DNA of 58,403 bases. It comes from Patescibacteria group bacterium. GTDB taxonomy: Bacteria; Patescibacteriota; Microgenomatia; UBA1400; 2-01-FULL-45-11. Location of the stretch: positions 1 to 58,403 of the forward strand of contig JBHPHI010000003.1 of NCBI GenBank assembly GCA_042569595.1, in the 5' to 3' direction. The translations under genes were made by a program, and so were the position numbers. Shown piece by piece: positions 1 to 13,100 of this stretch (the first letter of the stretch is position 1; every line of letters starts with the position of its first letter). The notes beneath the pieces were generated by a model that was not told the origin of the DNA, did no database searches, and worked only from the letters and a program-made list of their open reading frames with translations.

Positions 1-2
1 TC

Positions 3-3000
3 TTTTTTGGAAATAATTTGTTTGTTTTTGGACCTAAAAGTAGCGTTCGTCCACTGAATTGCGCTGCCTGTTGTTATTAGTGTTAATAGGTCTGATTTTT
101 GTTTCGGATCACTAAGAATTTCTTGCGATTTTCCAACAAATACTATCTTCAACTTTCTATCTTTGTCTATAACTCTAACCTCATTAGAATTGTTTAGTAT
201 TTCATCTAGGTCTCTTTCAACTTGCGAAACCTCCTCTGCTTTTTTGATGATTCCAACATTAATAACAACCTTATTGTCCTTAATGCCCGCAAATTTGAAA
301 TCGCTCCAAGTTGCTCCTTGCTCGATTTCAAAAAGGTCATTTTTTATCCTTTCCCATGCAGACAGTTCTGATTTAACTATGTTTGAAAATGGGAGTAAGT
401 CTAATGCGTTATAGAAGGCAAGAAGTAGTGGAGGTGTTTTGGATTCTGTGTTTTCTCTATCCTCAGTTAATTCTTCTTGTTGTTGAGTGTTTTTTTCATC
501 AACCTCTCCTGCTTCAGATCTTTGAGTTCTAAACTCTTGAATGATTCTGTCCTGCTCTTCGAAGGCGTCTATAGCTTCGTACACTAAGTCTCTAATGAAG
601 AAGAAGGCTTTGGGAAAGAAGCTGACAAAATTGTTTCCTATTAAACTTAAGAAGGCTGAAAATGCTTGACCTGCTAGTTGAATCCTTCTTGTAATTGGAA
701 GCCTTGAAAGATCGATTCCTGTTTGCCCTCCTGGCTCATCGGTATCATCGTCGTCAACTTTTATTTGAACAGCGTTGGCTATTACAAATTTCTCTCTTGG
801 TTTTTGATATGAGAACTGACTTGAGTAAGTTTCATATGTTTGAGTGGTAGGAACTTGGAATCCGACCATGGTTTGTGAGACATCTACCTCTTCTGCGCCC
901 CTATATGCCTCACTGAGACCGTAATCTAATCCTACTGCCTTACCTCCAAAATGCTCACCAGCTGCACTAATACTGTGACCGAAATAAACTCTAGGAGCAT
1001 TAAATATTGCGTTGTATTCGTCAACAACCTGCTCATAAATAAAACCGTCTCTTCTGGTTAGGTTTTGGAATAGGCTTCTAGCCTCTGACCTGTTTCCAGA
1101 CCTTAATATTCCTTTTATATTTCCGTTAATTCTGTTTACTGTGTCCTGAGGAGATAAGCCTTCTCTTGCCGCTCTTGCTCTAAATTCCTTTAGATCTCTT
1201 AATACCTGATGATGGTCTATCCCTCCTTGCGGAGTTCTTGGTATCTGACCATATCTGTGGTCGTCTGGATATAGATAGTAGATGTAGGCTGGTGTGTCAG
1301 AATGTTGGAGAATAGAGCCATCTGATCTAAAACCAATAGCATCTAAATTAGCTAGAAAATCTCTAACTCCGCTAGTTCTGTTGGCTATTCTAATCTCTTC
1401 CCTACTAACTCCATTTTTTCTAAACAGAGTTCCTGGACCCCAAAGGTTCTCATTATTTTCTTCTAGCATGGCCCAAAGGAATTGGACTTCATGATTTCCT
1501 AGAAGCATCTCAACGTTGGCGCCCTGTTTTTTAAGATCAACCAGCCTTCTAATGATCTCTATTCCTGGGGAATAAGACCTTCCTCCCAGTCTTCTTACAA
1601 CAAATTGGGCGGGTTGGCCCGTAGCTTTATCAATACCTCTGTCGAAATAGTCTCCCAAAAAGGTGAGAATGTCGTGGTTTTTGTTTTTTAAGGTCCACGA
1701 TCCGTCACTGTTGACTGAAATGACACCTTGCCTGATTAGTATTTTTTCTAGTTTTGCCAAGTCTGAATGAACATCTGCAATTATCCTTCTAGTTGCTTGG
1801 GTGTATTGTGTTTCAGTTCCAACTTGCTTTGTGTGAGTTTGAACTGTGGTTTTGTGTGAAAGTCCGCTGATTACGTTATTGCTCATTTGAGCTGCTATTC
1901 TAGTAGCGTTTTGTGATAGCTGATCAACAATTCTTGTAATGTTTTCTTCTGAAATTCCAGCTTCTCGTAGTTTGTTGGTTAAATAATCAATAACTTTGGG
2001 TGAACTAAGGCGACTTATAATCCTATTGTAAGACTCGACCATAATTGTTTGTTGGACATCTGCCGGAGAAGCTTGAGTGTTTTGGAATTCTTGCTGAACC
2101 TGCCTGTTAACTGCAGTAGTTTCTTGGTTGATTATTGCCTGACTAAAATCATCTAGTACTCTGTCTGCCAATCTTTGCTGTGGGGTTTTAAATAGGTTTT
2201 GAACGTTGGATCTTAGTTGTTCTATTAAACTAATGGTTGGTTCTTGTTCCTCTTCCTGAGTGGTAGCTGGTGTGATTGGCTCTTCTGATCTATCTTTTGC
2301 TTGTTGACTTGGTGCCTTTGTTTCTTCTGCGAGTTTGTTGTTTAGATCATGATCAACCACCTTATGTCTTCCATATCTTCCTAAGAATGCTTCTGGGAGA
2401 GCTATTCCGTGCTCATTCATAAATAGAGCAACATCTGTCTCGTGATCTGATATAGATTGGTCGTGAGCAATTTGACTTAAAGCTCCAGAGTCGAGACCCC
2501 TGTCTTCTAACATAAATTGAAGTCCGTGTAACCATTCCTCAAGGTAAACTACAGCAATATTGTGCTGTTGGTTTCTAGTAAGCTCTCCATCAACTACTGA
2601 AGCCCAACCAAGCGTAATTTGTCCGTTGGTGTGATACATGGAGGCATAGGCTACATTGTTTGCAATTACTTGAGTCATTCCTTCTGTATCTTCTGCGTAA
2701 ATTTGACCTCTGCCCGTATCAACTAATATTCCTACTGCTTCTGCCTCTTTTTGACCAGTGCTTAAATGCTCTATTGCTTCTTTGTATTGACCGCTTTTGA
2801 TTAAGTCTACTGCTTGGCCAATGTAGTTTATGTACGCAGCCTCAGCTTCACTAAATTCTTGTCCCCTTAGGTTGGGTGACTGAGAAATAATCTTTTCATC
2901 TGTGGTTGGTGAGTCATCTATTTTGGCGGTTGTTCTTGCGGAGAATTCTAGGTTAATCTCTCCTTTACTAGTTTGCGTGATTATGACTGCCTGTCCGCCG

Positions 3001-6000
3001 ATTATTATTGTGTCTCCAGAGTTAATGATTTGAGTTCCAAGTTTTTCTATTAGTTTTCCGTTAACCAAAGTTCCGTTAGTGCTCCCTCTGTCTCTGATAA
3101 CCCAGTTTCCTTGATTATCTTTGTATATATCTGCGTGTTGTCTACTAATTTCTGGGTGACTAATAACAAATCTGTTGGCTGAGTTTCTACCAATTGTGAT
3201 TGGATTGTCTTGTGTGGCCCGATCAGAAGGTACTTTGTGTTGTGTATTTGAATCTAGATCTATTCTTACACTTGGTTCTGGTTGAGTTGTTGGATTGACA
3301 CTATCTATAACCTCATCTTGTGAGGATTCTTCAGTTTTTGGAGCTTCAGTTTCTTTGGGTGTTTCTTCAGTATCTGGAGTTATTTCTGATTCTGTAATAT
3401 CTTCTGTTGTCCCTCCCCTGCCAGTTTGCAAGGTTTGATCTGAGGGTGGTTTTCCGTCATCTGGGAGGGTATCGTCTGTTGGTGGAACTTCTTCTGGCGG
3501 TGGTTCTTGATCGTCAACATCATCCTCTCCTCCTTTTTCTTCTGAGTCAGGTTTTTCTTCCGTTGGCTTATCTTCCCTGGGTGACTCTTTTGGTTTATCT
3601 GGTTTTTCAGTCGTTGTTGCATCTGCTATTGGTCTGAATGGGCCATTAACGTCTTTGAAGCCTGCAATAATATCATCTTGTGTTGCTCCAGCTATTCCTA
3701 GATTTTCCAAAGCTTCTCTTATAGCCTGCTCATTTGCTCTGCCACTCTGGGCATATTCGTATTCTCTCTCAAGTTGTTGAAAATCACTCCTTCCTGACAA
3801 CCATGTGCTTAATGCAGCCCTAACTGATCTTTCACCCTCTGATCCTGTTAGGCCTCTTAAGAAATCTATGCCTTGATTTGAAGATATGCCGCCTTGAATT
3901 TGTTCTTGACTTAGTGCTCCTAATCCAATTACTGATCTACCAATATTGCTAAAATTACTAAATGCCCTGGCGATTGGTTGGACAACATTATAATTAAATG
4001 CTGGGCCCCATCTCTTTGGATTGATTATTGTTCTGGTTGCCTCTTGAACGGTTCTGGTAATAGAGGGTTTTGCTTTGGCTACATAAACTGCTGGCGGTGT
4101 ATCTAAACCCCTATTAACCACATCTGGCATATCAGATTTTGTATAAAATGAAGAGAATTCTTCAAATAAGGTAACGAAGTTTTTGGTTACATAAATCGGA
4201 GTGTCTGGTGTCGGGTTGTCTGAAAATCTTACTCTCCAAGCACCCTCTGCTTCATCGTAGGTTGCAAATCTGTTAATGTCTGGGTGGTCTCTGATTGTGG
4301 GAATGTCTGTATCCCACTGGCTCTTCATAAAATCAATAACTGACCTTGGAGCTCCTTCAACCTGTAGTCTGTCTACCAAGGCCCTAACTTGTTGATGGCC
4401 TGAGTCTATTAGATTAAATGCAACAATGTCGCTGTCAACACCTTTGTTTATAAGATTGGCGTTAAATTGTGAAGTTTCATCTATCTTAGTAAGTGCATTT
4501 TGGTATATTTTGTCCCATTTACCATGCTCTCTGCTTCCCGATCTTAGTGTGGATAAATGCTCGTCTCTAGCCCTTACTACTGCGTCTCTTTGCATGGCGC
4601 TGGTTAGGTCTGAGAAGTTTTTCCAGGCAATATCTTGGCTCTTGGCCTGAGTAGCTTTGGTTCTGTGACTTTCAAGGTCAAAAAGGCCTAAATCTCTTCC
4701 AGATGCAAACTCTTCCCAAGCAGTTGTTGCTCTGGCTGTTTCAACTATTTGATCAGCTTTTTCTGCAGCTAATCTTAATACTTCAGGATCGTTGGTGGGC
4801 CTTCCTGATTCTATAAGACGCGCTATCTCCGGGTCAGTTTCGATTAATTTATTAACTAATTGTCCATAGTCACCACCACCTTCACCAGTTTCAAAATTAT
4901 ATGTTTTTCTACCCCCATCTATATCGACCAATAAGGCAAGAAGTCTATTTCTTCCAACCCCCTGATTAACAAGGTCTCCATCTGAAGCTCTAATAACTAA
5001 ATCCCCTTCAAATGAATATTCTGTTAAGTGTTTCCAGGTAGGAATGTAGTTGCCCTCTACTACGTCTTTTATTGACACCCCTAAACTGACCCCCGTTTCT
5101 CTATTTAGTTGGTAAATAACTAGCAGCTCCTCCCCACTGTCAGCGGTTGAATCTTTAATAAACTTCCTCCAAGAATCGATGTCCGGATCGCCGTTTTTCT
5201 TTGTGAAATAAACCTTATCACCTAGTGAACCATCATCATTTCTGGTTCTTTGATAGAAAGATCCATCTGGGTCTGTGCCAGCAATAATTTTTCTACCTGG
5301 AAATTGCTTGTCTATGTAGGCGTCCATATCCTCCCAAGAAATGCCGCCGTTTTCGTTGACAATGGCAATTGGTTTGGTGATTTCATTAATCTCAGCCTGG
5401 AGAACGTTTGTTTTTCCTACATTGTTTATGTATTCAATGGAATCACTGTCTCCGTTAGTAATTCTTGAGATTTCAGCATCTAGCTCCTGAATCTTAGATT
5501 CGATCTGTTCTATAAGTTTTGTGTTACCAGAATTTCTGGCTGTTTCTGCTTCGACTAGTAATGCGTGCTTATTTTCTGATAATCTTACTGCCTCAACATA
5601 AACTTCTTCTCCTTTTATAGTTACTTCTTTTCCGCTTAGTATTCTTGTGGTTTCGGGGATTAATTCTGGCTTAGGCAAGTCTTGAATTCCTCCCCTGATT
5701 GAATCTAATTCTGTTTGAAGCCGAGGTGCATTGTTTGACACCTCTGATTGAGAGTGTCTTATCAATACCTGTTGTTGATCTGCGTCTAAATCTTGCCAAG
5801 ATACTTCTCCTTTTGATTTAATATTTCTTGCGTCTACGCCAGCATCTTCAATAATTCTTATAACTTGATTTGTATTTTGAAGCGTTTCTGCAACATGTCC
5901 TCTAGTGGCGTTATGAAGAATCATATCGGACATGTTTTCTCCTGTCTGACCAACTCTAGCTACTTCAATGTCTCTGGCAGTTCCCGAAACCTGCCCTCCA

Positions 6001-9000
6001 ATTCCCTTAAAGTTGTCGATTACGTCTCCTGGGGTGGCTGAGTAGCCAATCTTTGCAAGCAAACTTGCGTCGGTAATGACTCCTGCTTGTTCGAGTTTAA
6101 TGAACTCTTGGCGCTGTAGTTCTTGTTGTCTCATAATATCGATGGCATTGGTGGTGGATGAGTTTTTGCTAACTGAGAGTTTGGTTGGATCAAAATCTCC
6201 CCTAGGACTGTTGTTTTGGCCTCTAATTATGTCTACCCCCGTAGTGTTTTGAGCATATTGCTGCCAAAAGCTTTGCAGTTTTAGCTCGTTGTCCTGACCT
6301 TTTGTTCTTAGATTTGCTACTCCTTCTTCTACTGAAAAATCGTTTTGCCTAACCTGAGACATAACAAACAACTCTGCCTCCATAGCTGTGTTTTTAGCAA
6401 TAATTCTTTGCTGTAGAACCTCTAAGTCTCCGGTTTGATGAGAGTTTACAAACTCTTGCATAGCTTGCTTTATCTCATCTGGAGACATGTCTTTGGCTTT
6501 AGCTAGGGGTGAATCTCTGAAGGCTGGATGGTCTGACTCTGAAAGAACCATTTGTTTATAAATTTCGCTTTCGAAGTCAGGATTTAAAGGTCTTCCGCCC
6601 TCACCAAAAATAACACCAGCAACTCTTTGCTCGTTATTGTTGGCATCAATAACTTGTTTCCTAAGATTTTCAATTAATGGTAACTTTTGTACTTCATCAT
6701 GAATTTTCACTGGATCATAACTAAGATCTCCAGCAAAATCGATAAAATCTACTTCTTCTCCAGCGCTTCTATAGTAACCCCCGTCGGTAATTGGGGCTTC
6801 ATCTATAAGTTGGTGCTGTGAAGCAAGTTTTTGATACATGACTGCTTCTGGAGAAGTATCGTTCCCTCTAACGAATGAGAAGTTGTGTGATTTTTCGTCT
6901 GTCATAATGATAATTCTTTCACCACTTCCTAGCATTGCCTCTACTTCTTCCGTAATTATTGACCTGAAAGTGTCTCCATTTTTCCCATCTACTCTCTCTC
7001 CAGCGACCCTAATGGTAAACCCTTCATCTTGGTCATATGCGAGAACTCTAACCCCAGCTTGATCTAATAATTCTTGGTCTATAAAGTCGTTTTTAAAACT
7101 ATCTATTAATCCACCAGGGGCACGAATACTTACTGGGGCGCCTGTATCAGTAAGCACCAGAGCGGCAAGTGGTATTTGGACTAAGCTTTTTCCTGATCCT
7201 GCTCCTGATTCGATAACAACCTTTCCTTTAACGACTGCGTCAACAACATCAGTGATCTGGGTGAATCTTGCACCAGCTTCTGGGCCAAAAAGCCTTTGGA
7301 TATGAGTGTCCATAAGGTCAATATTGCTGTTTAGTTGATTAATTAAGGATTTTATTTCTGGAGGAGCTGACCTGCTGACTTCTATTCTTCTATCATTTTT
7401 GTCTATTTTGAGTAACCCATCGGACTCAAATTGCTGCAACTTAGCTATGAGATTTTTGCCAGTAAGTTCTGGGGTGAACGTTTTATCAGAATCACCCCGG
7501 AATCGGGATAAAAAGGTATCTTCAAACCACTGTCCCGCAGTTCTTCTGGTAGTTTGAATGTTTTCTGGTGTAACTGATCCTGATTTAATTTCTATCGCCT
7601 TTGGACTGTCACCAGTTGTTAGCTTGCTCATTGAGTCTGAAGAAATGGTGGCGTCAAGTCGATTTACATTTTCTGTTAATCGAATGGCGTGGCCTTCTGT
7701 GAGGAATTCTCCTGGTATCTTAGTTGAAGGATTGTTGTCGAAGGTAGCTCTAATTTGGTATTCGCCCGTACTTTCATTGAGTTTGTAGATGACTATTTGT
7801 TCACCGCTGTTTCTGCCTATTTCTAATGTTTTTCCGTTAATTTCAATTTTTGTGTCTTTGTTTAAAACTAAATCGTCTGGCGGGGCTCTGACAGGCGTGT
7901 CGTCTGTTGTTGTTTGGGTTCGTGTTGTTTCTTGCTCTGTTTGGTTTACTCTGGTTTCTTCAATGTCAGGTTGTGTAGGTTTAGATGATGGTAGATCCGT
8001 ATCTGTGGTTTCCGAATCAGCTAGTCTAGTTGTTTGTCCAGATATTTCTGTGTCTTGAGTTCTGTAACCACCAACTGGATTTCTCCAGCTGTCTCCGAAT
8101 CTACTCGTTCCAATTTGATTGGTTTGATTAATAAACCTATCTGCTGCAGCTTGGTGTGCATCAATGTCATCCACGTCAGTTGTGCGGATGGAGTTTTCAA
8201 ACTCTTCTTGAGCTTGCCTAAATTGAGCTGACTCCTCATTGTTTGTGAGTCTATCTATTGTTTTTCTTACTCCCGTTGTTAAACTAGCAGCCAAAATTGC
8301 TTGCTCCTGAGAAACTCTGCCGTATAGTTCTACTGATTTTTGTTTTGCATCAATGTCCGTTGGATTGTTCCTGTAGGCTTCATGCGCCTCAATATATGAT
8401 TGTTCTGTTGGTGTGGGGGTTTTCCCAACAGAACCTGCCAACCTTGTCATGTTGTTATCAAGTTCAACTTCTTTATATACAGAGAAGACGTTGTTTCTTA
8501 GATCAATATTTTCATTAAGGCTTGAAAGGGACTGACCTCTAACTACTTCTAATAGTCTTTGTTCGTTTAAGGTTAGGTTTCCATCATCTATTAATGATCT
8601 ACCATAGTTGATTCCCTGATCAATTGAAGCTTCAAACTGACCCTGAGCATATATTGCCCCCTGAAGCATTGCTTCTGCGTCTACTATTGTAAGTTTTATT
8701 GTTTGTCCATCTACTGGATTTACATAGTCTATAAACTCTGGGGCTCCTGGTTTTCGAAATTGCGCCATTAAATCATCTGCTTCTGCTAAGACAGGAAGTT
8801 TCCCAGTATAAGGGTCTGCTTGGACAGTTCTCATTGTGTGAATACCAACACCTAACTGCCCCGTATTAACCATAAGATTCGTCCAGGCTTGACTACATTG
8901 GGCAGGATTTGCGAGAGGCCCTCCTCCACAAGACATCATAATGTCCCACCCTGTTGCTGCTTCATCTATTACGTCGGTGCCTATATTCAGTCCTGTATCT

Positions 9001-12000
9001 ACAACCTGTGTTGCTCTATTGGATGATCCAGCAGGAATGAGAGACCCAGCAGTTCGAGCAAGAGCTAATCCAAGGTTAACTTTTGCTAAAGAACAGTTGC
9101 TTTCGCTGTAGTGTTCTGCGGAATCATCACATTGGATAGTCATATTTCCGTAAGCTAAACCACTTCCTGCGACTTGAGTGACTACGTTTGCAGCTCTAAA
9201 AGCATTTGAGGTTTGATTTGCCACTTGAGATGCTACCTTTTTAGCTGCCTCTAGTGAGCCTAAAGTTCCAGCTTTGGCAGCTGCTATGGCAGAATTTCCA
9301 ACAAGATTTGATATTAGAGTATCTCCTCCTCCAGCTCCCAGAAAAGCTCCTCCAACCTGAAGAACTGTTCCTCCAACAGCAAGCCCACACTGAAGACCAT
9401 CAAGCTCTTCTCCCCCACAAACGGTTCCTAAATTGTCTAAGCCAACGGTAGCGTTATAAATGCTAGCTCCAGTTTGAAGAGTGAAAGCTGTTTGAGCCAT
9501 GGCTGCCCATCCACCACCAGAAAGCCCTTGCCCTATTCCAGTAACTGCTCTTGTGAGAAGTCCTCCTGTTGAAGATGCTGCAATTGTCCCACCTGAAGCA
9601 ATGGCTGCCCCTGCCCCAAACACAGGAATGGCAATTGCTGCTATTTTGACTGCATCAGCTGCTGGGGCAGCTCCTTGAATGAGAGCTCCTCTTGTTCTGT
9701 CCCACCAAGTGTCTCCGTTTAGTAGTAGGTCATTTCCCCTCATGGTGGCACCGTTAGTTTTGTCGTTATAGTAGATTACAAATCTTGTTAATAGATCTCC
9801 ATTTTCTGCCATGTCATCATATGTTTGTTGCATTTCGGCAAAATTTACATTTATTTCATCTACTGTGATCCTTCCATCTCCGTTAATGTCTTCAAAATCA
9901 TCTACTTCTCCACTTTGCCACTTTTGATACCTTTCTACCTGAGCACATGCGTTGCTATCATTTTCAAAATTACAATTTATTACCTCTCCGGTATCTTCAT
10001 CAAATTCTATTTGTTGAAGATTCATAAGACTTGGAAGTATGTTTTGGTAAGCTAACGCTTGCTGTTGTTCAATGTTGTCTGATTCAAAATCGACTACACA
10101 ATTTCTTTCTGAATAATAATCTATGCCTCCGCTTTCATCGCATCTATAACCATCACTGCAACTGTTTTGTGTGCTGCCAATTAAATTTATGTTGCAGGTA
10201 CCAGCAGAGAGTCTTTGACTATCACTAACGACACAGCTCGTTCCCTCTACCTTATATCCATCTGGGCAACTAGGTCTGCCTTGACCAGTATTATATTGAG
10301 GATCAATTACACCATCGATTCCAAACGTATAACCATCATATATTCCTGGTACTCCCATTGCATCGTCTACCACACATGCGTTTTTATCCCCATCCCATCT
10401 AGCGTTAAGGCCCGGCATGGTTGCTCCACAGGCCTCTTGTCTGATTTCAAACCCTTCTTTTAGTTCTGTGTAGGTTTCATAACTTATTTCTCCTTGAGTG
10501 TACTGGTCTAGTAAATTGTCTCCGTATTCTTCATGTAGGTTTATGGCTGTATTTAGACTATTAATTGTTTCCTGGGGCAGAAATTGTCCGTAACTACCCT
10601 GTCCCATACAACCACCTGAATCGATTAAGCTTTCAATTCTAGCCATGCTGGTACCACCCTGCTCTCTTAAGCAGTCTTGCTGGACTGAAGACGATCCGTT
10701 AATCGCATAGTCTGCAAATTCACCCATGGGGTCTTTGCATCTTTCTCTATCTCTTCCTGGAGATGAATATTTTTCAAAACACATTTCAGCTAATCTCTCT
10801 ACATCTTGACTGGCAACTGCTGAGGCAATAGCTAAGGCATTGGCGTGAATTACTAAATCAGGATTTATTTCTCCTAATTGTTCTATTAGATTAGCTTGAT
10901 ACTCATCTCGATAAGTTGTGCATGCTTGTCCAGCATAACGAGCAGATTGTGCGTCCATACCCTGAATACTTGCCAAACATTCTTCTTGAGATTGTGTTGC
11001 TTGAGTCAGCATCCAAGAAGCTTCTGAATATATATAGTTAGTTTCTATGGCCTCTTTAATTTGATCCACCTGGTCTTCTCCAAACCTATCTTCTGCTTGT
11101 GTAAGTAGTTCTTCATATCTAATACAGCTTGGTGCTCCTGAGCTAGCTGTGCTGCCGCCGACGCCTTCACAAGCAGTTCCATATTCTTGTAAGTCTTCAT
11201 ATAATTCTTGGTTTTGTCGTGCAGTTTGTACTGTTTGACTTAAAGCTTCCTTCTGGTCATCGGATAATGCATTTCTTTCTTCTCTGTATTCAGCACAACC
11301 AGGAGCACTGTAGTTTCTCGAACATTCAACTCCTTGTTCTACTAAGTGGACTATACTTTCTTGTGCTTCGATTCTTTCTTGTGTGTCTGACAATATCCCA
11401 TCAAAAGCTCTTTGGTCGTCTCTTGACAGTGAGTCGTAGTCTGGCCAAAAACCCCTACAACCCTCATCCCACCTAGGCTTATCTGCGCATTCCAAACCCA
11501 ATTCAACTAGAGGACCTAGGGTGTAATTTATTCTGTCTTGTTCCTGAGCATAGGCTAAGGCTCTTTCGTACATTGCTTTTTGCTCATCTGTTAGGTTGCT
11601 TACTGTTTGCTCGTGACTGTAACACTCATAGTCTGAATAGGCTAAACTTCCTCTTTCTGGACAACTCAACCCTTCTTCAATTAATCCGCTTAATTGAGTA
11701 TCTATAAATATTTGAGCTTCTACTGAAGAACTGATAGCTTCTTGGGCTGCGGTAGATAATTGAGCCATTGCTGCAAAATGTGCCCTACACCTATCTTCTT
11801 CTCGACCATACATATTTTCAGGATCGGAACAAAAAATGCTATCTTCTAAAAGCCCCTCCCTATCTTCGTGAATAAGGTCTAAATCGCCTGCAGAATGCGT
11901 GTATCCAATTTCGACATTTTCTCTTTCAATAACGTAGTTAGGACCGTAAGTTACTTGACATCCTGGACACTCCATCCACTTACCATCGTTACATCTCCAT

Positions 12001-13100
12001 CTAACACCTGAGCTGTTTCTGGGTCCGGTTGCTGTTGTTCCGTGACCTACTGACCCAGCTTCTCCAGGACATGAGTCTCCAGTGTCTCCTCCAGCTGTTG
12101 CTGCTTCAAGTAAAGCTTGCCTTCTTAGGGCTTCTGCTTCTTGTGAAGCAACCTGCTCCCCATAGGCAGACAAAGCATCTCTTAAGGCTGCTCTTTTTTC
12201 TGGGTCCGCAACAAGAGCTATTTCTGCTTCAATATCAGGATTGCTTAAACCTACCCAACATCCACCATCTTTTTTTGCGCTACCATCTGGACAAGTTGAC
12301 GAAGATACTGGAACAAAAACTGTTCCTTCTGCGGCATTGTAATCTGGGATTGTGCCTGCGCATATTGTGCCGTTTGAATTATGACACTGACCATCACCTC
12401 CATAATGTTCGGTGGGGTTCCACTGACAACTTCCCCCAACACAAGATTGGCCACCACTACATTCTCCTGCTCCAACTCCACATACGCTGCACGTTGGTGG
12501 GTTTTGTTTATAGCAAGGAGCGCCAGCATATCCATAAAATTCCTCTGCTAGGGCGTTACAACCTCCACTTAATGACCCACCACAAAATCCTCCATCTGTT
12601 CCACCCGCACACCATTTGGTACAATTTTTTGCACAACCAGGATCTTTTCTGGTACAGACTCCTTTTGGCACTCCTGTTCCCGTAGAACGATTTCCCCAAT
12701 AATATATTCCACCGTTATAGTCTTTCATGTAAGAATCAGTAAGTTTGTTTCCTTTACAATTAGAGCTGTCCGAGACAATTCGCTTACTGTGACAGACTGT
12801 GCCGTTTGGAGTTTGCTTTCCAAGACCAAGATGCAGGCTTCCATCAACACACCTCTCGCTTCCGGTAAAATCCCATCCACCTGAGGCTGGTTCGCAAGAG
12901 TTTACCTCTGGGGGTGGAGTTGGAGGCGGGGTTGGAGGTACATGATCATCTGGAGTTGGAGCGGTGTATCCCGGCTCTTCAGGTTCGTAAGCAATTTCTG
13001 CTGCTTGAATGGGTTTGGCATATATAAAAGGAGTGAACAGATTTGCCAACAGAGAAATGAGGTTGATTATGGCGATGGTTCTTAGTTTTCTTTTATTCAT
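3..13100 (-). CDS. Giant multidomain membrane/exported protein, at least 4366 aa, running off the left edge of the window
   Basis: ATG at 13100 overlaps the upstream stop (ATGAATAA). Manual translation finds no in-frame stop down to base 3. Starts MNKRKLRTIAIINLISLLANLFTPFIYAKPIQAAE and ends in-window with ...KNKQIISKK. Probably absent from the ORF track because it has no stop in the window. Confidence 0.95.
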   Translation of the reverse strand, partial: MNKRKLRTIAIINLISLLANLFTPFIYAKPIQAAEIAYEPEEPGYTAPTPDDHVPPTPPPTPPPEVNSCEPASGGWDFTGSERCVDGSLHLGLGKQTPNGTVCHSKRIVSDSSNCKGNKLTDSYMKDYNGGIYYWGNRSTGTGVPKGVCTRKDPGCAKNCTKWCAGGTDGGFCGGSLSGGCNALAEEFYGYAGAPCYKQNPPTCSVCGVGAGECSGGQSCVGGSCQWNPTEHYGGDGQCHNSNGTICAGTIPDYNAAEGTVFVPVSSSTCPDGSAKKDGGCWVGLSNPDIEAEIALVADPEKRAALRDALSAYGEQVASQEAEALRRQALLEAATAGGDTGDSCPGEAGSVGHGTTATGPRNSSGVRWRCNDGKWMECPGCQVTYGPNYVIERENVEIGYTHSAGDLDLIHEDREGLLEDSIFCSDPENMYGREEDRCRAHFAAMAQLSTAAQEAISSSVEAQIFIDTQLSGLIEEGLSCPERGSLAYSDYECYSHEQTVSNLTDEQKAMYERALAYAQEQDRINYTLGPLVELGLECADKPRWDEGCRGFWPDYDSLSRDDQRAFDGILSDTQERIEAQESIVHLVEQGVECSRNYSAPGCAEYREERNALSDDQKEALSQTVQTARQNQELYEDLQEYGTACEGVGGSTASSGAPSCIRYEELLTQAEDRFGEDQVDQIKEAIETNYIYSEASWMLTQATQSQEECLASIQGMDAQSARYAGQACTTYRDEYQANLIEQLGEINPDLVIHANALAIASAVASQDVERLAEMCFEKYSSPGRDRERCKDPMGEFADYAINGSSSVQQDCLREQGGTSMARIESLIDSGGCMGQGSYGQFLPQETINSLNTAINLHEEYGDNLLDQYTQGEISYETYTELKEGFEIRQEACGATMPGLNARWDGDKNACVVDDAMGVPGIYDGYTFGIDGVIDPQYNTGQGRPSCPDGYKVEGTSCVVSDSQRLSAGTCNINLIGSTQNSCSDGYRCDESGGIDYYSERNCVVDFESDNIEQQQALAYQNILPSLMNLQQIEFDEDTGEVINCNFENDSNACAQVERYQKWQSGEVDDFEDINGDGRITVDEINVNFAEMQQTYDDMAENGDLLTRFVIYYNDKTNGATMRGNDLLLNGDTWWDRTRGALIQGAAPAADAVKIAAIAIPVFGAGAAIASGGTIAASSTGGLLTRAVTGIGQGLSGGGWAAMAQTAFTLQTGASIYNATVGLDNLGTVCGGEELDGLQCGLAVGGTVLQVGGAFLGAGGGDTLISNLVGNSAIAAAKAGTLGSLEAAKKVASQVANQTSNAFRAANVVTQVAGSGLAYGNMTIQCDDSAEHYSESNCSLAKVNLGLALARTAGSLIPAGSSNRATQVVDTGLNIGTDVIDEAATGWDIMMSCGGGPLANPAQCSQAWTNLMVNTGQLGVGIHTMRTVQADPYTGKLPVLAEADDLMAQFRKPGAPEFIDYVNPVDGQTIKLTIVDAEAMLQGAIYAQGQFEASIDQGINYGRSLIDDGNLTLNEQRLLEVVRGQSLSSLNENIDLRNNVFSVYKEVELDNNMTRLAGSVGKTPTPTEQSYIEAHEAYRNNPTDIDAKQKSVELYGRVSQEQAILAASLTTGVRKTIDRLTNNEESAQFRQAQEEFENSIRTTDVDDIDAHQAAADRFINQTNQIGTSRFGDSWRNPVGGYRTQDTEISGQTTRLADSETTDTDLPSSKPTQPDIEETRVNQTEQETTRTQTTTDDTPVRAPPDDLVLNKDTKIEINGKTLEIGRNSGEQIVIYKLNESTGEYQIRATFDNNPSTKIPGEFLTEGHAIRLTENVNRLDATISSDSMSKLTTGDSPKAIEIKSGSVTPENIQTTRRTAGQWFEDTFLSRFRGDSDKTFTPELTGKNLIAKLQQFESDGLLKIDKNDRRIEVSRSAPPEIKSLINQLNSNIDLMDTHIQRLFGPEAGARFTQITDVVDAVVKGKVVIESGAGSGKSLVQIPLAALVLTDTGAPVSIRAPGGLIDSFKNDFIDQELLDQAGVRVLAYDQDEGFTIRVAGERVDGKNGDTFRSIITEEVEAMLGSGERIIIMTDEKSHNFSFVRGNDTSPEAVMYQKLASQHQLIDEAPITDGGYYRSAGEEVDFIDFAGDLSYDPVKIHDEVQKLPLIENLRKQVIDANNNEQRVAGVIFGEGGRPLNPDFESEIYKQMVLSESDHPAFRDSPLAKAKDMSPDEIKQAMQEFVNSHQTGDLEVLQQRIIAKNTAMEAELFVMSQVRQNDFSVEEGVANLRTKGQDNELKLQSFWQQYAQNTTGVDIIRGQNNSPRGDFDPTKLSVSKNSSTTNAIDIMRQQELQRQEFIKLEQAGVITDASLLAKIGYSATPGDVIDNFKGIGGQVSGTARDIEVARVGQTGENMSDMILHNATRGHVAETLQNTNQVIRIIEDAGVDARNIKSKGEVSWQDLDADQQQVLIRHSQSEVSNNAPRLQTELDSIRGGIQDLPKPELIPETTRILSGKEVTIKGEEVYVEAVRLSENKHALLVEAETARNSGNTKLIEQIESKIQELDAEISRITNGDSDSIEYINNVGKTNVLQAEINEITKPIAIVNENGGISWEDMDAYIDKQFPGRKIIAGTDPDGSFYQRTRNDDGSLGDKVYFTKKNGDPDIDSWRKFIKDSTADSGEELLVIYQLNRETGVSLGVSIKDVVEGNYIPTWKHLTEYSFEGDLVIRASDGDLVNQGVGRNRLLALLVDIDGGRKTYNFETGEGGGDYGQLVNKLIETDPEIARLIESGRPTNDPEVLRLAAEKADQIVETARATTAWEEFASGRDLGLFDLESHRTKATQAKSQDIAWKNFSDLTSAMQRDAVVRARDEHLSTLRSGSREHGKWDKIYQNALTKIDETSQFNANLINKGVDSDIVAFNLIDSGHQQVRALVDRLQVEGAPRSVIDFMKSQWDTDIPTIRDHPDINRFATYDEAEGAWRVRFSDNPTPDTPIYVTKNFVTLFEEFSSFYTKSDMPDVVNRGLDTPPAVYVAKAKPSITRTVQEATRTIINPKRWGPAFNYNVVQPIARAFSNFSNIGRSVIGLGALSQEQIQGGISSNQGIDFLRGLTGSEGERSVRAALSTWLSGRSDFQQLEREYEYAQSGRANEQAIREALENLGIAGATQDDIIAGFKDVNGPFRPIADATTTEKPDKPKESPREDKPTEEKPDSEEKGGEDDVDDQEPPPEEVPPTDDTLPDDGKPPSDQTLQTGRGGTTEDITESEITPDTEETPKETEAPKTEESSQDEVIDSVNPTTQPEPSVRIDLDSNTQHKVPSDRATQDNPITIGRNSANRFVISHPEISRQHADIYKDNQGNWVIRDRGSTNGTLVNGKLIEKLGTQIINSGDTIIIGGQAVIITQTSKGEINLEFSARTTAKIDDSPTTDEKIISQSPNLRGQEFSEAEAAYINYIGQAVDLIKSGQYKEAIEHLSTGQKEAEAVGILVDTGRGQIYAEDTEGMTQVIANNVAYASMYHTNGQITLGWASVVDGELTRNQQHNIAVVYLEEWLHGLQFMLEDRGLDSGALSQIAHDQSISDHETDVALFMNEHGIALPEAFLGRYGRHKVVDHDLNNKLAEETKAPSQQAKDRSEEPITPATTQEEEQEPTISLIEQLRSNVQNLFKTPQQRLADRVLDDFSQAIINQETTAVNRQVQQEFQNTQASPADVQQTIMVESYNRIISRLSSPKVIDYLTNKLREAGISEENITRIVDQLSQNATRIAAQMSNNVISGLSHKTTVQTHTKQVGTETQYTQATRRIIADVHSDLAKLEKILIRQGVISVNSDGSWTLKNKNHDILTFLGDYFDRGIDKATGQPAQFVVRRLGGRSYSPGIEIIRRLVDLKKQGANVEMLLGNHEVQFLWAMLEENNENLWGPGTLFRKNGVSREEIRIANRTSGVRDFLANLDAIGFRSDGSILQHSDTPAYIYYLYPDDHRYGQIPRTPQGGIDHHQVLRDLKEFRARAAREGLSPQDTVNRINGNIKGILRSGNRSEARSLFQNLTRRDGFIYEQVVDEYNAIFNAPRVYFGHSISAAGEHFGGKAVGLDYGLSEAYRGAEEVDVSQTMVGFQVPTTQTYETYSSQFSYQKPREKFVIANAVQIKVDDDDTDEPGGQTGIDLSRLPITRRIQLAGQAFSAFLSLIGNNFVSFFPKAFFFIRDLVYEAIDAFEEQDRIIQEFRTQRSEAGEVDEKNTQQQEELTEDRENTESKTPPLLLAFYNALDLLPFSNIVKSELSAWERIKNDLFEIEQGATWSDFKFAGIKDNKVVINVGIIKKAEEVSQVERDLDEILNNSNEVRVIDKDRKLKIVFVGKSQEILSDPKQKSDLLTLITTGSAIQWTNATFRSKNKQIISKK
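900..1790 (-). other. PPP-family metallophosphatase domain in the giant protein
   Basis: Ordered motifs IADVHSD (DVH 1767-1775), LGDYFDRG (1635-1655), LGNHE (1488-1499), QHSD (His at 1302), FGHS (972-983) and GLDYG (918-929). Confidence 0.9.
2400..2560 (-). other. Zincin-like metal-binding motif (EExxH variant) in the giant protein
   Basis: VYLEEWLHGLQ (EEWLH 2526-2540), followed about 30 aa later by DHETDVA (2427-2444). Confidence 0.5.
2994..3200 (-). other. FHA domain in the giant protein
   Basis: ITIGRNSANRFVISHPEISRQHADIYKDNQGNWVIRDRGSTNGTLVNG...GDTIIIG has the conserved GR, SxxH and STNGT motifs. Confidence 0.92.
4900..7260 (-). other. SecA-like/SF2 (DEAD-type) ATPase module in the giant protein
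   Basis: Walker A VIESGAGSGKS (7185-7205), Walker B-like LIDEA (6795-6809), motif III GYSATP (6033-6041) and motif VI-like NQGVGRNR (4944-4964), in SF2 order. Confidence 0.75.
8820..9660 (-). other. Gly/Ala-rich hydrophobic helical bundle with three Cys-paired loops
   Basis: Segments such as AVKIAAIAIPVFGAGAAIASGG and GLAVGGTVLQVGGAFLGAG. Loops C-x9-C (9387-9419), C-x11-C (9093-9131) and C-x10-C (8895-8930). Confidence 0.65.
9855..9890 (-). other. EF-hand-type Ca-binding loop in the giant protein
   Basis: DINGDGRITVDE fits D-x-N-x-D-G-x-I-x-x-x-E. Confidence 0.65.

Follow-up and report, generated by a model that had tools for sequence, protein, structure and literature searches.

A cysteine boundary common to a giant-protein family of ultra-small Microgenomates that had gone unrecognised

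The cysteines (Cys) of a giant protein encoded by a Patescibacteria group bacterium (assembly GCA_042569595.1, contig JBHPHI010000003.1) stop at a sharp boundary, and this boundary is real and common to a previously unrecognised giant-protein family of ultra-small Microgenomates. The stretch of DNA analysed, which we call the window, is 58,403 nucleotides long and is one entire contig of a 0.91-Mb, 47-contig assembly; the giant open reading frame (ORF) occupies 3..13100 on its minus strand, has 4,366 amino acids (aa) in the window and is open at the contig end. Its product comprises a Cys-rich head, a Gly/Ala-rich segment and a long body with an ATPase region. An automated count finds exactly 56 Cys in the ORF, all within residues 69-1402, and none in the 2,964 codons of residues 1403-4366. 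A preliminary description of the region, which relied on a manual count, had put about 56 Cys in codons 1-1402 and none in the next ~2960, and the recount bears out both figures and with them the uneven spread. The same description had singled out positions 8820-9660, which are aa 1147-1427 of the giant ORF, as a segment in which the last six Cys form three close pairs; the pairs are indeed 1228/1238, 1324/1336 and 1391/1402, spaced 10, 12 and 11 apart.

The Cys-free run continues beyond the window. An exact 55-nt overlap of contig ends (window 1-60 at the junction) joins the giant ORF in frame to contig C23 of this assembly, and the C23 portion (L002 3774-12851, minus strand) adds 3,026 residues to the stop codon, giving a joined protein of ~7,375 aa in which the run is 4,618 aa long (residues 1403-6020). 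Random codons with the base composition of the body would yield ~2% Cys. At the proteome-wide Cys content of 0.64%, ~30 Cys would be expected in the run (Poisson probability of none, ~1e-13), and 408 of the 2,964 in-window codons of the Cys-free body sit one substitution from a Cys codon; chance therefore does not account for the run. Across the whole joined protein, 32 of the 33 consecutive Cys pairs fall within 30 residues. An assembly artefact or a non-coding frame is excluded by the 22-kb open frame and by the conserved operon described below.

Word-based searches with the segment (aa 1090-1470) and the head (aa 60-1140) returned only the query itself, as did an exhaustive phmmer search of aa 1100-2299 against 1.84e9 representative proteins. 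Six-frame searches for the segment in the genomes of 60 relatives and, across the order, for the ATPase region in 200 genomes were both empty, and the segment had no match among PDB sequences. The family was found through synteny, with a 249-aa upstream partner, which has 17 homologues, as the marker. Six loci from Microgenomates or metagenomes (the window, L005, L086, L087, L088/L089 and L090) share an operon and a giant: downstream of genes of ~100, ~250 and ~225 aa lies a giant gene whose head has paired Cys, L087 being without the ~100-aa gene in its visible stretch. In L005, the nearest Microgenomates metagenome-assembled genome (MAG), the order is MurJ, LepA, two small genes and then the giant ORF; the partners are 51% and 33% identical to those of the window, and the N-terminus of the giant matches at E=9e-14. 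The giants are linked pairwise at E=1e-119 (L086-L088), E=5e-65 (L005-L088) and E=1e-13 (L005-window), and their lengths are 8,774 aa in L086 and 4,084 aa in L087, with lower bounds of 2,587 aa in L088/L089 and 845 aa in L090. We note that the small proteins of the operon are 26-55% identical across loci, whereas the giants have diverged nearly past detection, and that the operon is flanked by MurJ-LepA in the window and L005 and by MreB in L086, L088/L089 and L090.

The boundary could be compared in the four relatives with a visible hydrophobic region, later Cys being counted over the next 1,100-1,700 visible residues. Each carries a single long uncharged stretch of 24-37 aa, whose hydropathy is given here and below as the best 19-residue Kyte-Doolittle mean (KD) and ranges from 1.48 to 1.9. 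L005 has 46 Cys upstream of its stretch (1087-1118, KD 1.9) and 2 after it; the corresponding counts are 34 and 0 in L086 (1343-1379, KD 1.69), 34 and 0 in L088 (1426-1460, KD 1.48) and 78 and 0 in L087 (1883-1906, KD 1.71). Across the family, including the window giant, the Walker A motif comes 500-1,000 aa after the stretch (KD 1.48-1.96), and L005, L086 and L088 share with the window giant a pair of hydrophobic runs separated by an (S/T)(A/G)GG-type centre. Head Cys are even in number and all in short-range pairs in every giant of the family (median spacing in the relatives, 8.5-9). The last head Cys of the relatives precedes the hydrophobic stretch by 175-465 aa, which argues that the Cys boundary tracks the head domain rather than the bilayer itself. 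Past the stretch, the region in the relatives is charged and Cys-free, with a second Gly-rich acidic portion, so the uncharged region with three Cys pairs in the window giant is a lineage-specific elaboration.

Several features support the view that the head is an exported disulfide-type domain, as the preliminary description had supposed in placing it outside the cell: a K/R-rich start is followed by a hydrophobic signal or anchor, the Cys are even in number and paired at short range, and the genome encodes thiol-disulfide oxidoreductases of the kind expected for a Sec/Dsb-type substrate, namely two membrane-anchored DsbA-like (Thioredoxin_4) proteins (G000:C28:3495-4272 and G000:C7:28869-29526) with the sites CPFC and CPAC. 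VKOR was not found in the genome. The heads of the relatives show the same helical-repeat theme as aa 394-812.

To place these counts in their genomic setting, the proteome was sorted into Cys classes, crudely, by hydropathy. N-anchored or exported proteins contain 1.11% Cys, with an even count in 72% of those that have Cys; the figures are 0.66% and 46% for cytoplasmic-type proteins and 0.26% and 43% for polytopic ones. Two other giants of the genome (3,534 and 1,770 aa) consist of a MerR-type helix-turn-helix (HTH), one transmembrane (TM) helix and a Cys-free remainder of 3,300 or 1,600 residues, which is probably extracellular. Thus, paired Cys mark the outside in the present organism, and the absence of Cys does not mark the inside. 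The idea that a Cys-free body by itself betrays a reducing cytoplasm is unsafe on these grounds, given that cytoplasmic-class proteins carry 0.66% Cys and that the Cys-free parts of the two other giants probably lie outside. No reading considered here accounts for the complete purge of Cys from the body. An absence over thousands of residues, enzyme domains included, that the average of neither compartment explains points to a selective pressure undescribed for these organisms, for which oxidative cross-linking of huge scaffolds and the need to stay export-competent are candidates.

The MerR-HTH giants lie at G000:C7:9546-20147 (L092) and G000:C33:1-5311 (L093), and neither copy has Cys. Members of this class, which also includes L086 1-4756, have 1,600-3,900 residues after the TM helix without a Pfam domain; the L086 member (3,916 aa) is encoded two genes upstream of the operon on its metagenome contig. 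Another giant ORF (G000:C7:2-8981), of at least 2,993 aa, shows no hydrophobic segment in its visible part and pairs its 16 Cys regularly at distances of 16-32 residues; it looks like another disulfide-built surface protein.

The segment that follows the head of the window giant is 33% Gly+Ala and has 9% charged residues, versus 27% in the body. It contains five stretches (a-e) free of D/E/K/R and three Cys loops (Table 1). With the TM helices of MurJ and PMT in the window as a yardstick (KD 1.37-2.67), only stretches a and c reach a KD of at least 1.48 and the range of real TM helices. The preliminary description had drawn seven helices here, only moderately hydrophobic ones. The number is approximate, and five of the seven are of marginal hydrophobicity, only stretches a and c approaching TM level; a seven-pass bundle is unsupported, because two of its helices (1337-1358 and 1363-1390) are charged and three further stretches reach only KD 0.4-0.7. 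It is unlikely that the charged helices of aa 1337-1390 span a membrane. Stretch a, placed where the relatives carry their long Gly/Ala-rich stretch, is the likeliest candidate for a membrane-spanning anchor. K/R are absent from the Cys loops, each of which has 0-4 acidic residues; the region 1325-1402 has 9 D/E versus 3 K/R; and the loops share the C-x9-19-C helix-loop-helix design of the head repeats.

The segment has no internal repeats and no paralogue elsewhere in the genome. That it is a hydrophobic copy of the head repeats was considered and rejected, as a hidden Markov model (HMM) of the seven head repeats does not match it even at E<=100. N gaps (9575-9584 and two more runs) interrupt the orthologous giant in the L005 record (MHDE01000009.1); one gap shifts the frame, so that the giant reads as a 335-aa ORF and an ORF of at least 2,522 aa, and one sits exactly where the counterpart of stretch a might be.

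Table 1 Features of the giant protein in the window and of its operon partners.
Feature	Residues (aa)	Window position	Strand	Basis or remark
Predicted N-terminal signal or anchor	8-28	13017..13079	-	follows K/R-rich start MNKRKLR; KD 1.9; present in all five relatives too
Cys-rich head	69-1052	9945..12896	-	50 Cys, all short-range pairs
Seven helical repeats of ~55 aa	394-812	10665..11921	-	one C-x9-19-C loop per repeat
DINGDG calcium-type (EF-hand or dockerin-like) loop	1071-1076	9873..9890	-	counterparts DSDGDG in L005, DTDGDG in L088
WWDR motif	1132-1135	9696..9707	-	common to syntenic orthologue L005
Stretch a	1153-1183	9552..9644	-	31 uncharged residues; KD 1.77-1.96 (1153-1171 reaches TM range)
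Stretch b	1185-1221	9438..9548	-	37 uncharged residues; weakly hydrophobic, KD 0.53
Cys loop 1, CGGEELDGLQC	1228-1238	9387..9419	-	acidic
Stretch c	1235-1259	9324..9398	-	25 uncharged residues; KD 1.48 (at 1238-1256); two GxxxGxxxG runs
K/R-bearing helical loop	1260-1302	9195..9323	-	4 K/R, 2 D/E
Stretch d	1303-1324	9129..9194	-	22 uncharged residues; KD 0.72
Cys loop 2, CDDSAEHYSESNC	1324-1336	9093..9131	-	Cys count
Two charged helices	1337-1390	8931..9092	-	1337-1358 has K1340 and R1349; 1363-1390 has five acidic residues
Cys loop 3, CGGGPLANPAQC	1391-1402	8895..8930	-	C1402 is the final Cys ahead of the 4,618-aa Cys-free run
Stretch e	1403-1423	8832..8894	-	uncharged; KD 0.43
Cys-free body, in-window part	1403-4366	3..8894	-	Cys count
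P-loop ATPase region	1930-2950	4251..7313	-	GAGSGKS at 1966, LIDEA at 2098, NQGVGRNR at 2712
FHA domain	3301-3368	2997..3200	-	Pfam E=1.4e-19
Calcineurin-like / PPP phosphatase	3773-~4050	951..1784	-	Pfam E=2.8e-7, above cut-off; PHROG NinI-like
Operon partner, 228 aa		13093..13779	-	N-terminal anchor, Fn3-like and beta-sandwich parts; 26-35% identity in other five loci
Operon partner, 249 aa		13776..14525	-	N-terminal anchor, no Cys; 35-51% identity in other five loci
Operon partner, 100 aa		14518..14820	-	49-55% identity in three loci

The reading that we favour, at somewhat better than even confidence, is that the giant stays in the cytoplasmic membrane of the cell that makes it, with an exported, disulfide-stapled head, stretch a as an anchor, five passes in all and its enzymes in the cytoplasm. 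The Cys pattern, which the family conserves, is observed, as are the hydrophobic stretches and the domains and motifs; the topology, the disulfides and the number of passes are inferred. The N-terminal signal or anchor would send the 1,100-aa head out via Sec, and the membrane-anchored DsbA-like enzymes would staple its helix-loop-helix units with short-range disulfides. Stretch a, situated between the calcium-type loop and the ATPase as in the relatives, would serve as a stop-transfer anchor. In the lineage of the window, the juxtamembrane helices may have shed charges and gained three C-x10-12-C loops; the chain would then cross at a, b, c, d and e, with all Cys outside and b-c and d-e forming two extra hairpins. 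Cys loop 1 would be the outer turn of hairpin b-c, an acidic helical hairpin (aa 1337-1390) between d and e would lie outside the cell, clamped by Cys loops 2 and 3, and the K/R-bearing loop 1260-1302 would face inward. The ATPase, FHA domain, PPP phosphatase and rest of the body would lie in the producer's own cytoplasm, and late hydrophobic segments (aa 5498-5898) may return the final ~1,450 aa, in which paired Cys recur, to the outside.

A number of observations weigh against this arrangement. Stretches b, d and e (KD 0.43-0.72) are less hydrophobic than every real TM helix checked, and the residues just past the conserved stretch of the relatives are acidic, not K/R-rich. In L086 and L088, an extra hydrophobic 19-mer occurs ~130 aa upstream and, ~75 aa downstream, a Gly-rich acidic one; a second hydrophobic segment is present in L087 and a 27-residue assembly gap just past WWDR in L005, so that hydropathy fixes the parity of crossing in no member. 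The relatives do not share the three Cys loops, and an hhalign comparison of the relatives' module with that of the window is not significant (E=0.77). GxxxG-type motifs are no commoner than composition predicts (GxxxG, 7 versus 5.9 expected, P=0.37; GxxxGxxxG, 3 versus 1.2, P=0.14), and a single-sequence AlphaFold 2 (AF2) model, which draws ~10 helices in the segment, offers no structural support at a low-confidence predicted local distance difference test (pLDDT) score of 38.6. Finally, judging by the present genome, a cytoplasmic location would not lead one to expect a total lack of Cys.

Some of these points would sit well with a chain that crosses at stretch a only and runs from R1184 on as a cytoplasmic Gly/Ala-rich juxtamembrane or membrane-peripheral region, the main rival and the simplest view to take from the relatives, which we nevertheless consider unlikely. 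In L086 and L088, as in L005 outside its gap, a single long uncharged stretch precedes charged, soluble-looking helices; stretches b, d and e are more polar than an ordinary TM helix would allow; and one crossing suffices for odd parity. Were this so, the Cys pairs of the segment would be reduced, and they might bind metal, sense the redox state or have no such role, a corollary we hold to be just as doubtful. Against a single crossing, the three Cys loops copy the C-x9-19-C design of the exported head and are acidic and free of K/R. Moreover, 9% charged residues together with 16% Gly in predicted helices would be unusual for a soluble cytoplasmic region, and six Cys followed by none over 4,618 residues would be odd inside one compartment.

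The enzymes of the body bear on where it resides. The Walker A (AG.GK[ST]), Walker B (h-h-DE) and motif-VI-like TQG..RNR motifs of the ATPase region are kept in four family members, although the region is recognised neither by Pfam (no hit at E<=10, four members) nor by PDB sequences searched with the family profile. One match of that profile, to designed PPR repeats among PDB sequences, was set aside as spurious, and an AF2 model of the ATPase with the four-sequence alignment (pLDDT 37.7) was too poor for use. Searches of both halves of the protein with Pfam, NCBIfam and PHROGs yielded only FHA, Metallophos and weak noise, and no profile identified a kinase in the giant. The FHA-PPP part (window 801-3230, minus strand) is without a detectable counterpart in the L005 genome (G201), which suggests that members differ in the enzymes that they carry past the ATPase. 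Since the conserved ATPase motifs, the FHA domain and the PPP phosphatase are modules that need cytoplasmic substrates, they suggest that the body works in a cytoplasm. The preliminary description had proposed that an odd number of crossings brings the enzymes there; the motifs of the body and the hydrophobic stretch in four relatives speak for the location, whereas the parity that was to deliver it is not fixed by hydropathy.

The same modules bear on the possibility that nothing crosses at all, the segment being an extracellular Gly/Ala-rich helical or re-entrant element and the protein a surface fibre held by its N-terminal anchor and perhaps by its later hydrophobic segments. We give this little credence. 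Outside the cell, the ATPase motifs, FHA domain and PPP phosphatase would be without substrates; exported proteins of this genome are enriched in Cys, not free of them; and stretch a and its counterparts reach TM-level hydrophobicity. Such a fibre would nevertheless have company in the two other giants of the genome whose long Cys-free parts should be extracellular, the central (S/T)GG of the conserved stretch could form a short re-entrant hairpin, and the flanks break the positive-inside rule.

The C23 part of the protein contains three later hydrophobic segments (aa 5498-5516, 5548-5566 and 5879-5898), the last of which is the strongest of the whole protein (KD 2.08). After them 10 Cys return, and four of the five consecutive pairs fall within 30 residues (P=0.004). 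This part has no Pfam family match, and a PDB sequence search with the C-terminal part gave chance-level matches only, above E=0.3. It also contains GYSAG (GxSxG) and LLDFG motifs. A phage tape-measure or tail protein was rejected as an identity for the giant, the sole hint being a PHROG tail match (E=0.006) far downstream.

The preliminary description went further and suggested that the membrane crossed could be that of a host, the segment acting in the manner of a pore-forming or translocation domain. In this scheme the stapled Gly/Ala-rich module would act like a toxin translocation domain or a fusion loop, and the body would be exposed or delivered to the host cytoplasm, which we regard as quite improbable. 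Exported RTX toxins and colicins are Cys-poor, and the Cys-free body recalls them; no Cys over 4,618 aa exceeds what a resident cytoplasmic protein would need. Five of the seven helices are only marginally hydrophobic; the relatives differ in their bodies (FHA-PPP had no match in the L005 genome); and the evolution of the head is very fast, with no homologue detected by HMMER among 1.84 billion representative proteins. Patescibacteria, in addition, are often episymbionts. The idea loses ground on the other side of the ledger: neither Pfam, NCBIfam, PHROGs nor PDB sequences give a match to a toxin, translocation, pore-forming or secretion family, the Gly-zipper motifs are not enriched, and no secretion-system genes are conserved beside the operon. 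The N-terminal segment of L086 and L088 resembles an uncleaved anchor (KD 2.5, 24-27 residues), so that the protein would be held on its producer, and more hydrophobic segments lie 4,000 aa downstream. We know of no precedent for moving 6,000 aa across two envelopes. Very improbable, in our estimation, is also the notion of a host-contact machine of an episymbiont from which Cys was purged so that the body could pass unfolded through an oxidising, DsbA-patrolled space into a partner's cytoplasm; if it were true, the ATPase, FHA domain, phosphatase and other modules of the body would act in the cytoplasm of the partner cell.

The window is otherwise chromosomal in character, the neighbours being LepA, MurJ, S20, PilN/O, FemAB, PMT, TIM and UvrD-type helicases, and the closest match of LepA is to a Microgenomates MAG at 60% identity. 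Taken together, our analyses describe a family of proteins of 4,000 to 8,800 aa, with a fixed four-gene operon, that escapes ordinary homology searches. If the Cys pattern follows topology, it may offer a cheap check for giants whose TM predictions are unreliable, and a layout of head, membrane module and cytoplasmic ATPase and phospho-signalling modules hints at a way in which symbiotic bacteria of ultra-small size could link surface events to the cell interior.

Receptor-type envelope proteins, such as sensor kinases, FHA- or STP-linked proteins and eukaryotic Cys-rich receptors, have an ectodomain placed between or before TM segments, together with cytoplasmic signalling domains. The giant would share with them a Cys-rich, disulfide-bonded ectodomain, a crossing of the membrane and phospho-signalling modules (FHA, PPP) on the cytoplasmic side, but it is 10-20x larger, has an ATPase and contains thousands of residues without an assignable domain. 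The translocation domains of AB toxins and colicins and the fusion peptides or loops of viruses are functional analogies only: like them, the segment has moderately hydrophobic Gly/Ala-rich helices, disulfide-type closed loops and a place between a binding head and enzymes; unlike them, it has no sequence or profile match to such domains, and the protein shows no sign of leaving the producer cell. A VirB6/TrbL-type platform of a type IV secretion system was not recognised (no PF04610 match at E<=0.1). Work on Cys usage as a mark of compartment in monoderm bacteria (Daniels et al. 2010, J Biol Chem) reportedly contrasted the exclusion of Cys from exported proteins of Firmicutes with paired Cys in those of Actinobacteria. 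The present genome resembles the type with paired Cys outside, given its Cys-enriched exported proteins, even counts and DsbA-like enzymes. Unlike that contrast between genomes, however, the one described here lies within one polypeptide, whose Cys-free part is far below the average of either compartment.

The closest likeness in overall plan is to the giants of Omnitrophota, including 'dockerin-type' ones, which have long extracellular parts, in which TM anchors lead straight into very divergent SecA-DEAD domains, and whose TM predictions were called ambiguous by their own authors (West-Roberts et al. 2023, bioRxiv 10.1101/2023.11.21.568195). Both are very long single chains of ultra-small bacteria with dockerin- or calcium-type elements and a TM anchor followed by an ATPase; the proteins described here fall within the size class of several thousand to tens of thousands of aa (~7,375 aa in the window giant, 4,084 and 8,774 aa in relatives) and carry hydrophobic segments upstream of the ATPase, in the form of stretch a and its family counterparts. 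The Microgenomates family nevertheless belongs to another phylum and has no detectable sequence relation to the Omnitrophota giants, and their SecA_DEAD or SecA preprotein-binding domain was not found in it (Pfam E<=10, four members). It also differs in its helical-repeat head, apparently stapled by disulfides, its FHA and PPP body, its fixed four-gene operon and its sharp Cys boundary; the word 'cysteine' occurs 0 times in the main text of the Omnitrophota preprint, so that such a boundary is not discussed there (10.1101/2023.11.21.568195). The family thus shares the plan of the Omnitrophota giants and is set apart from them by its paired-Cys head, its four-gene operon and its Cys boundary.

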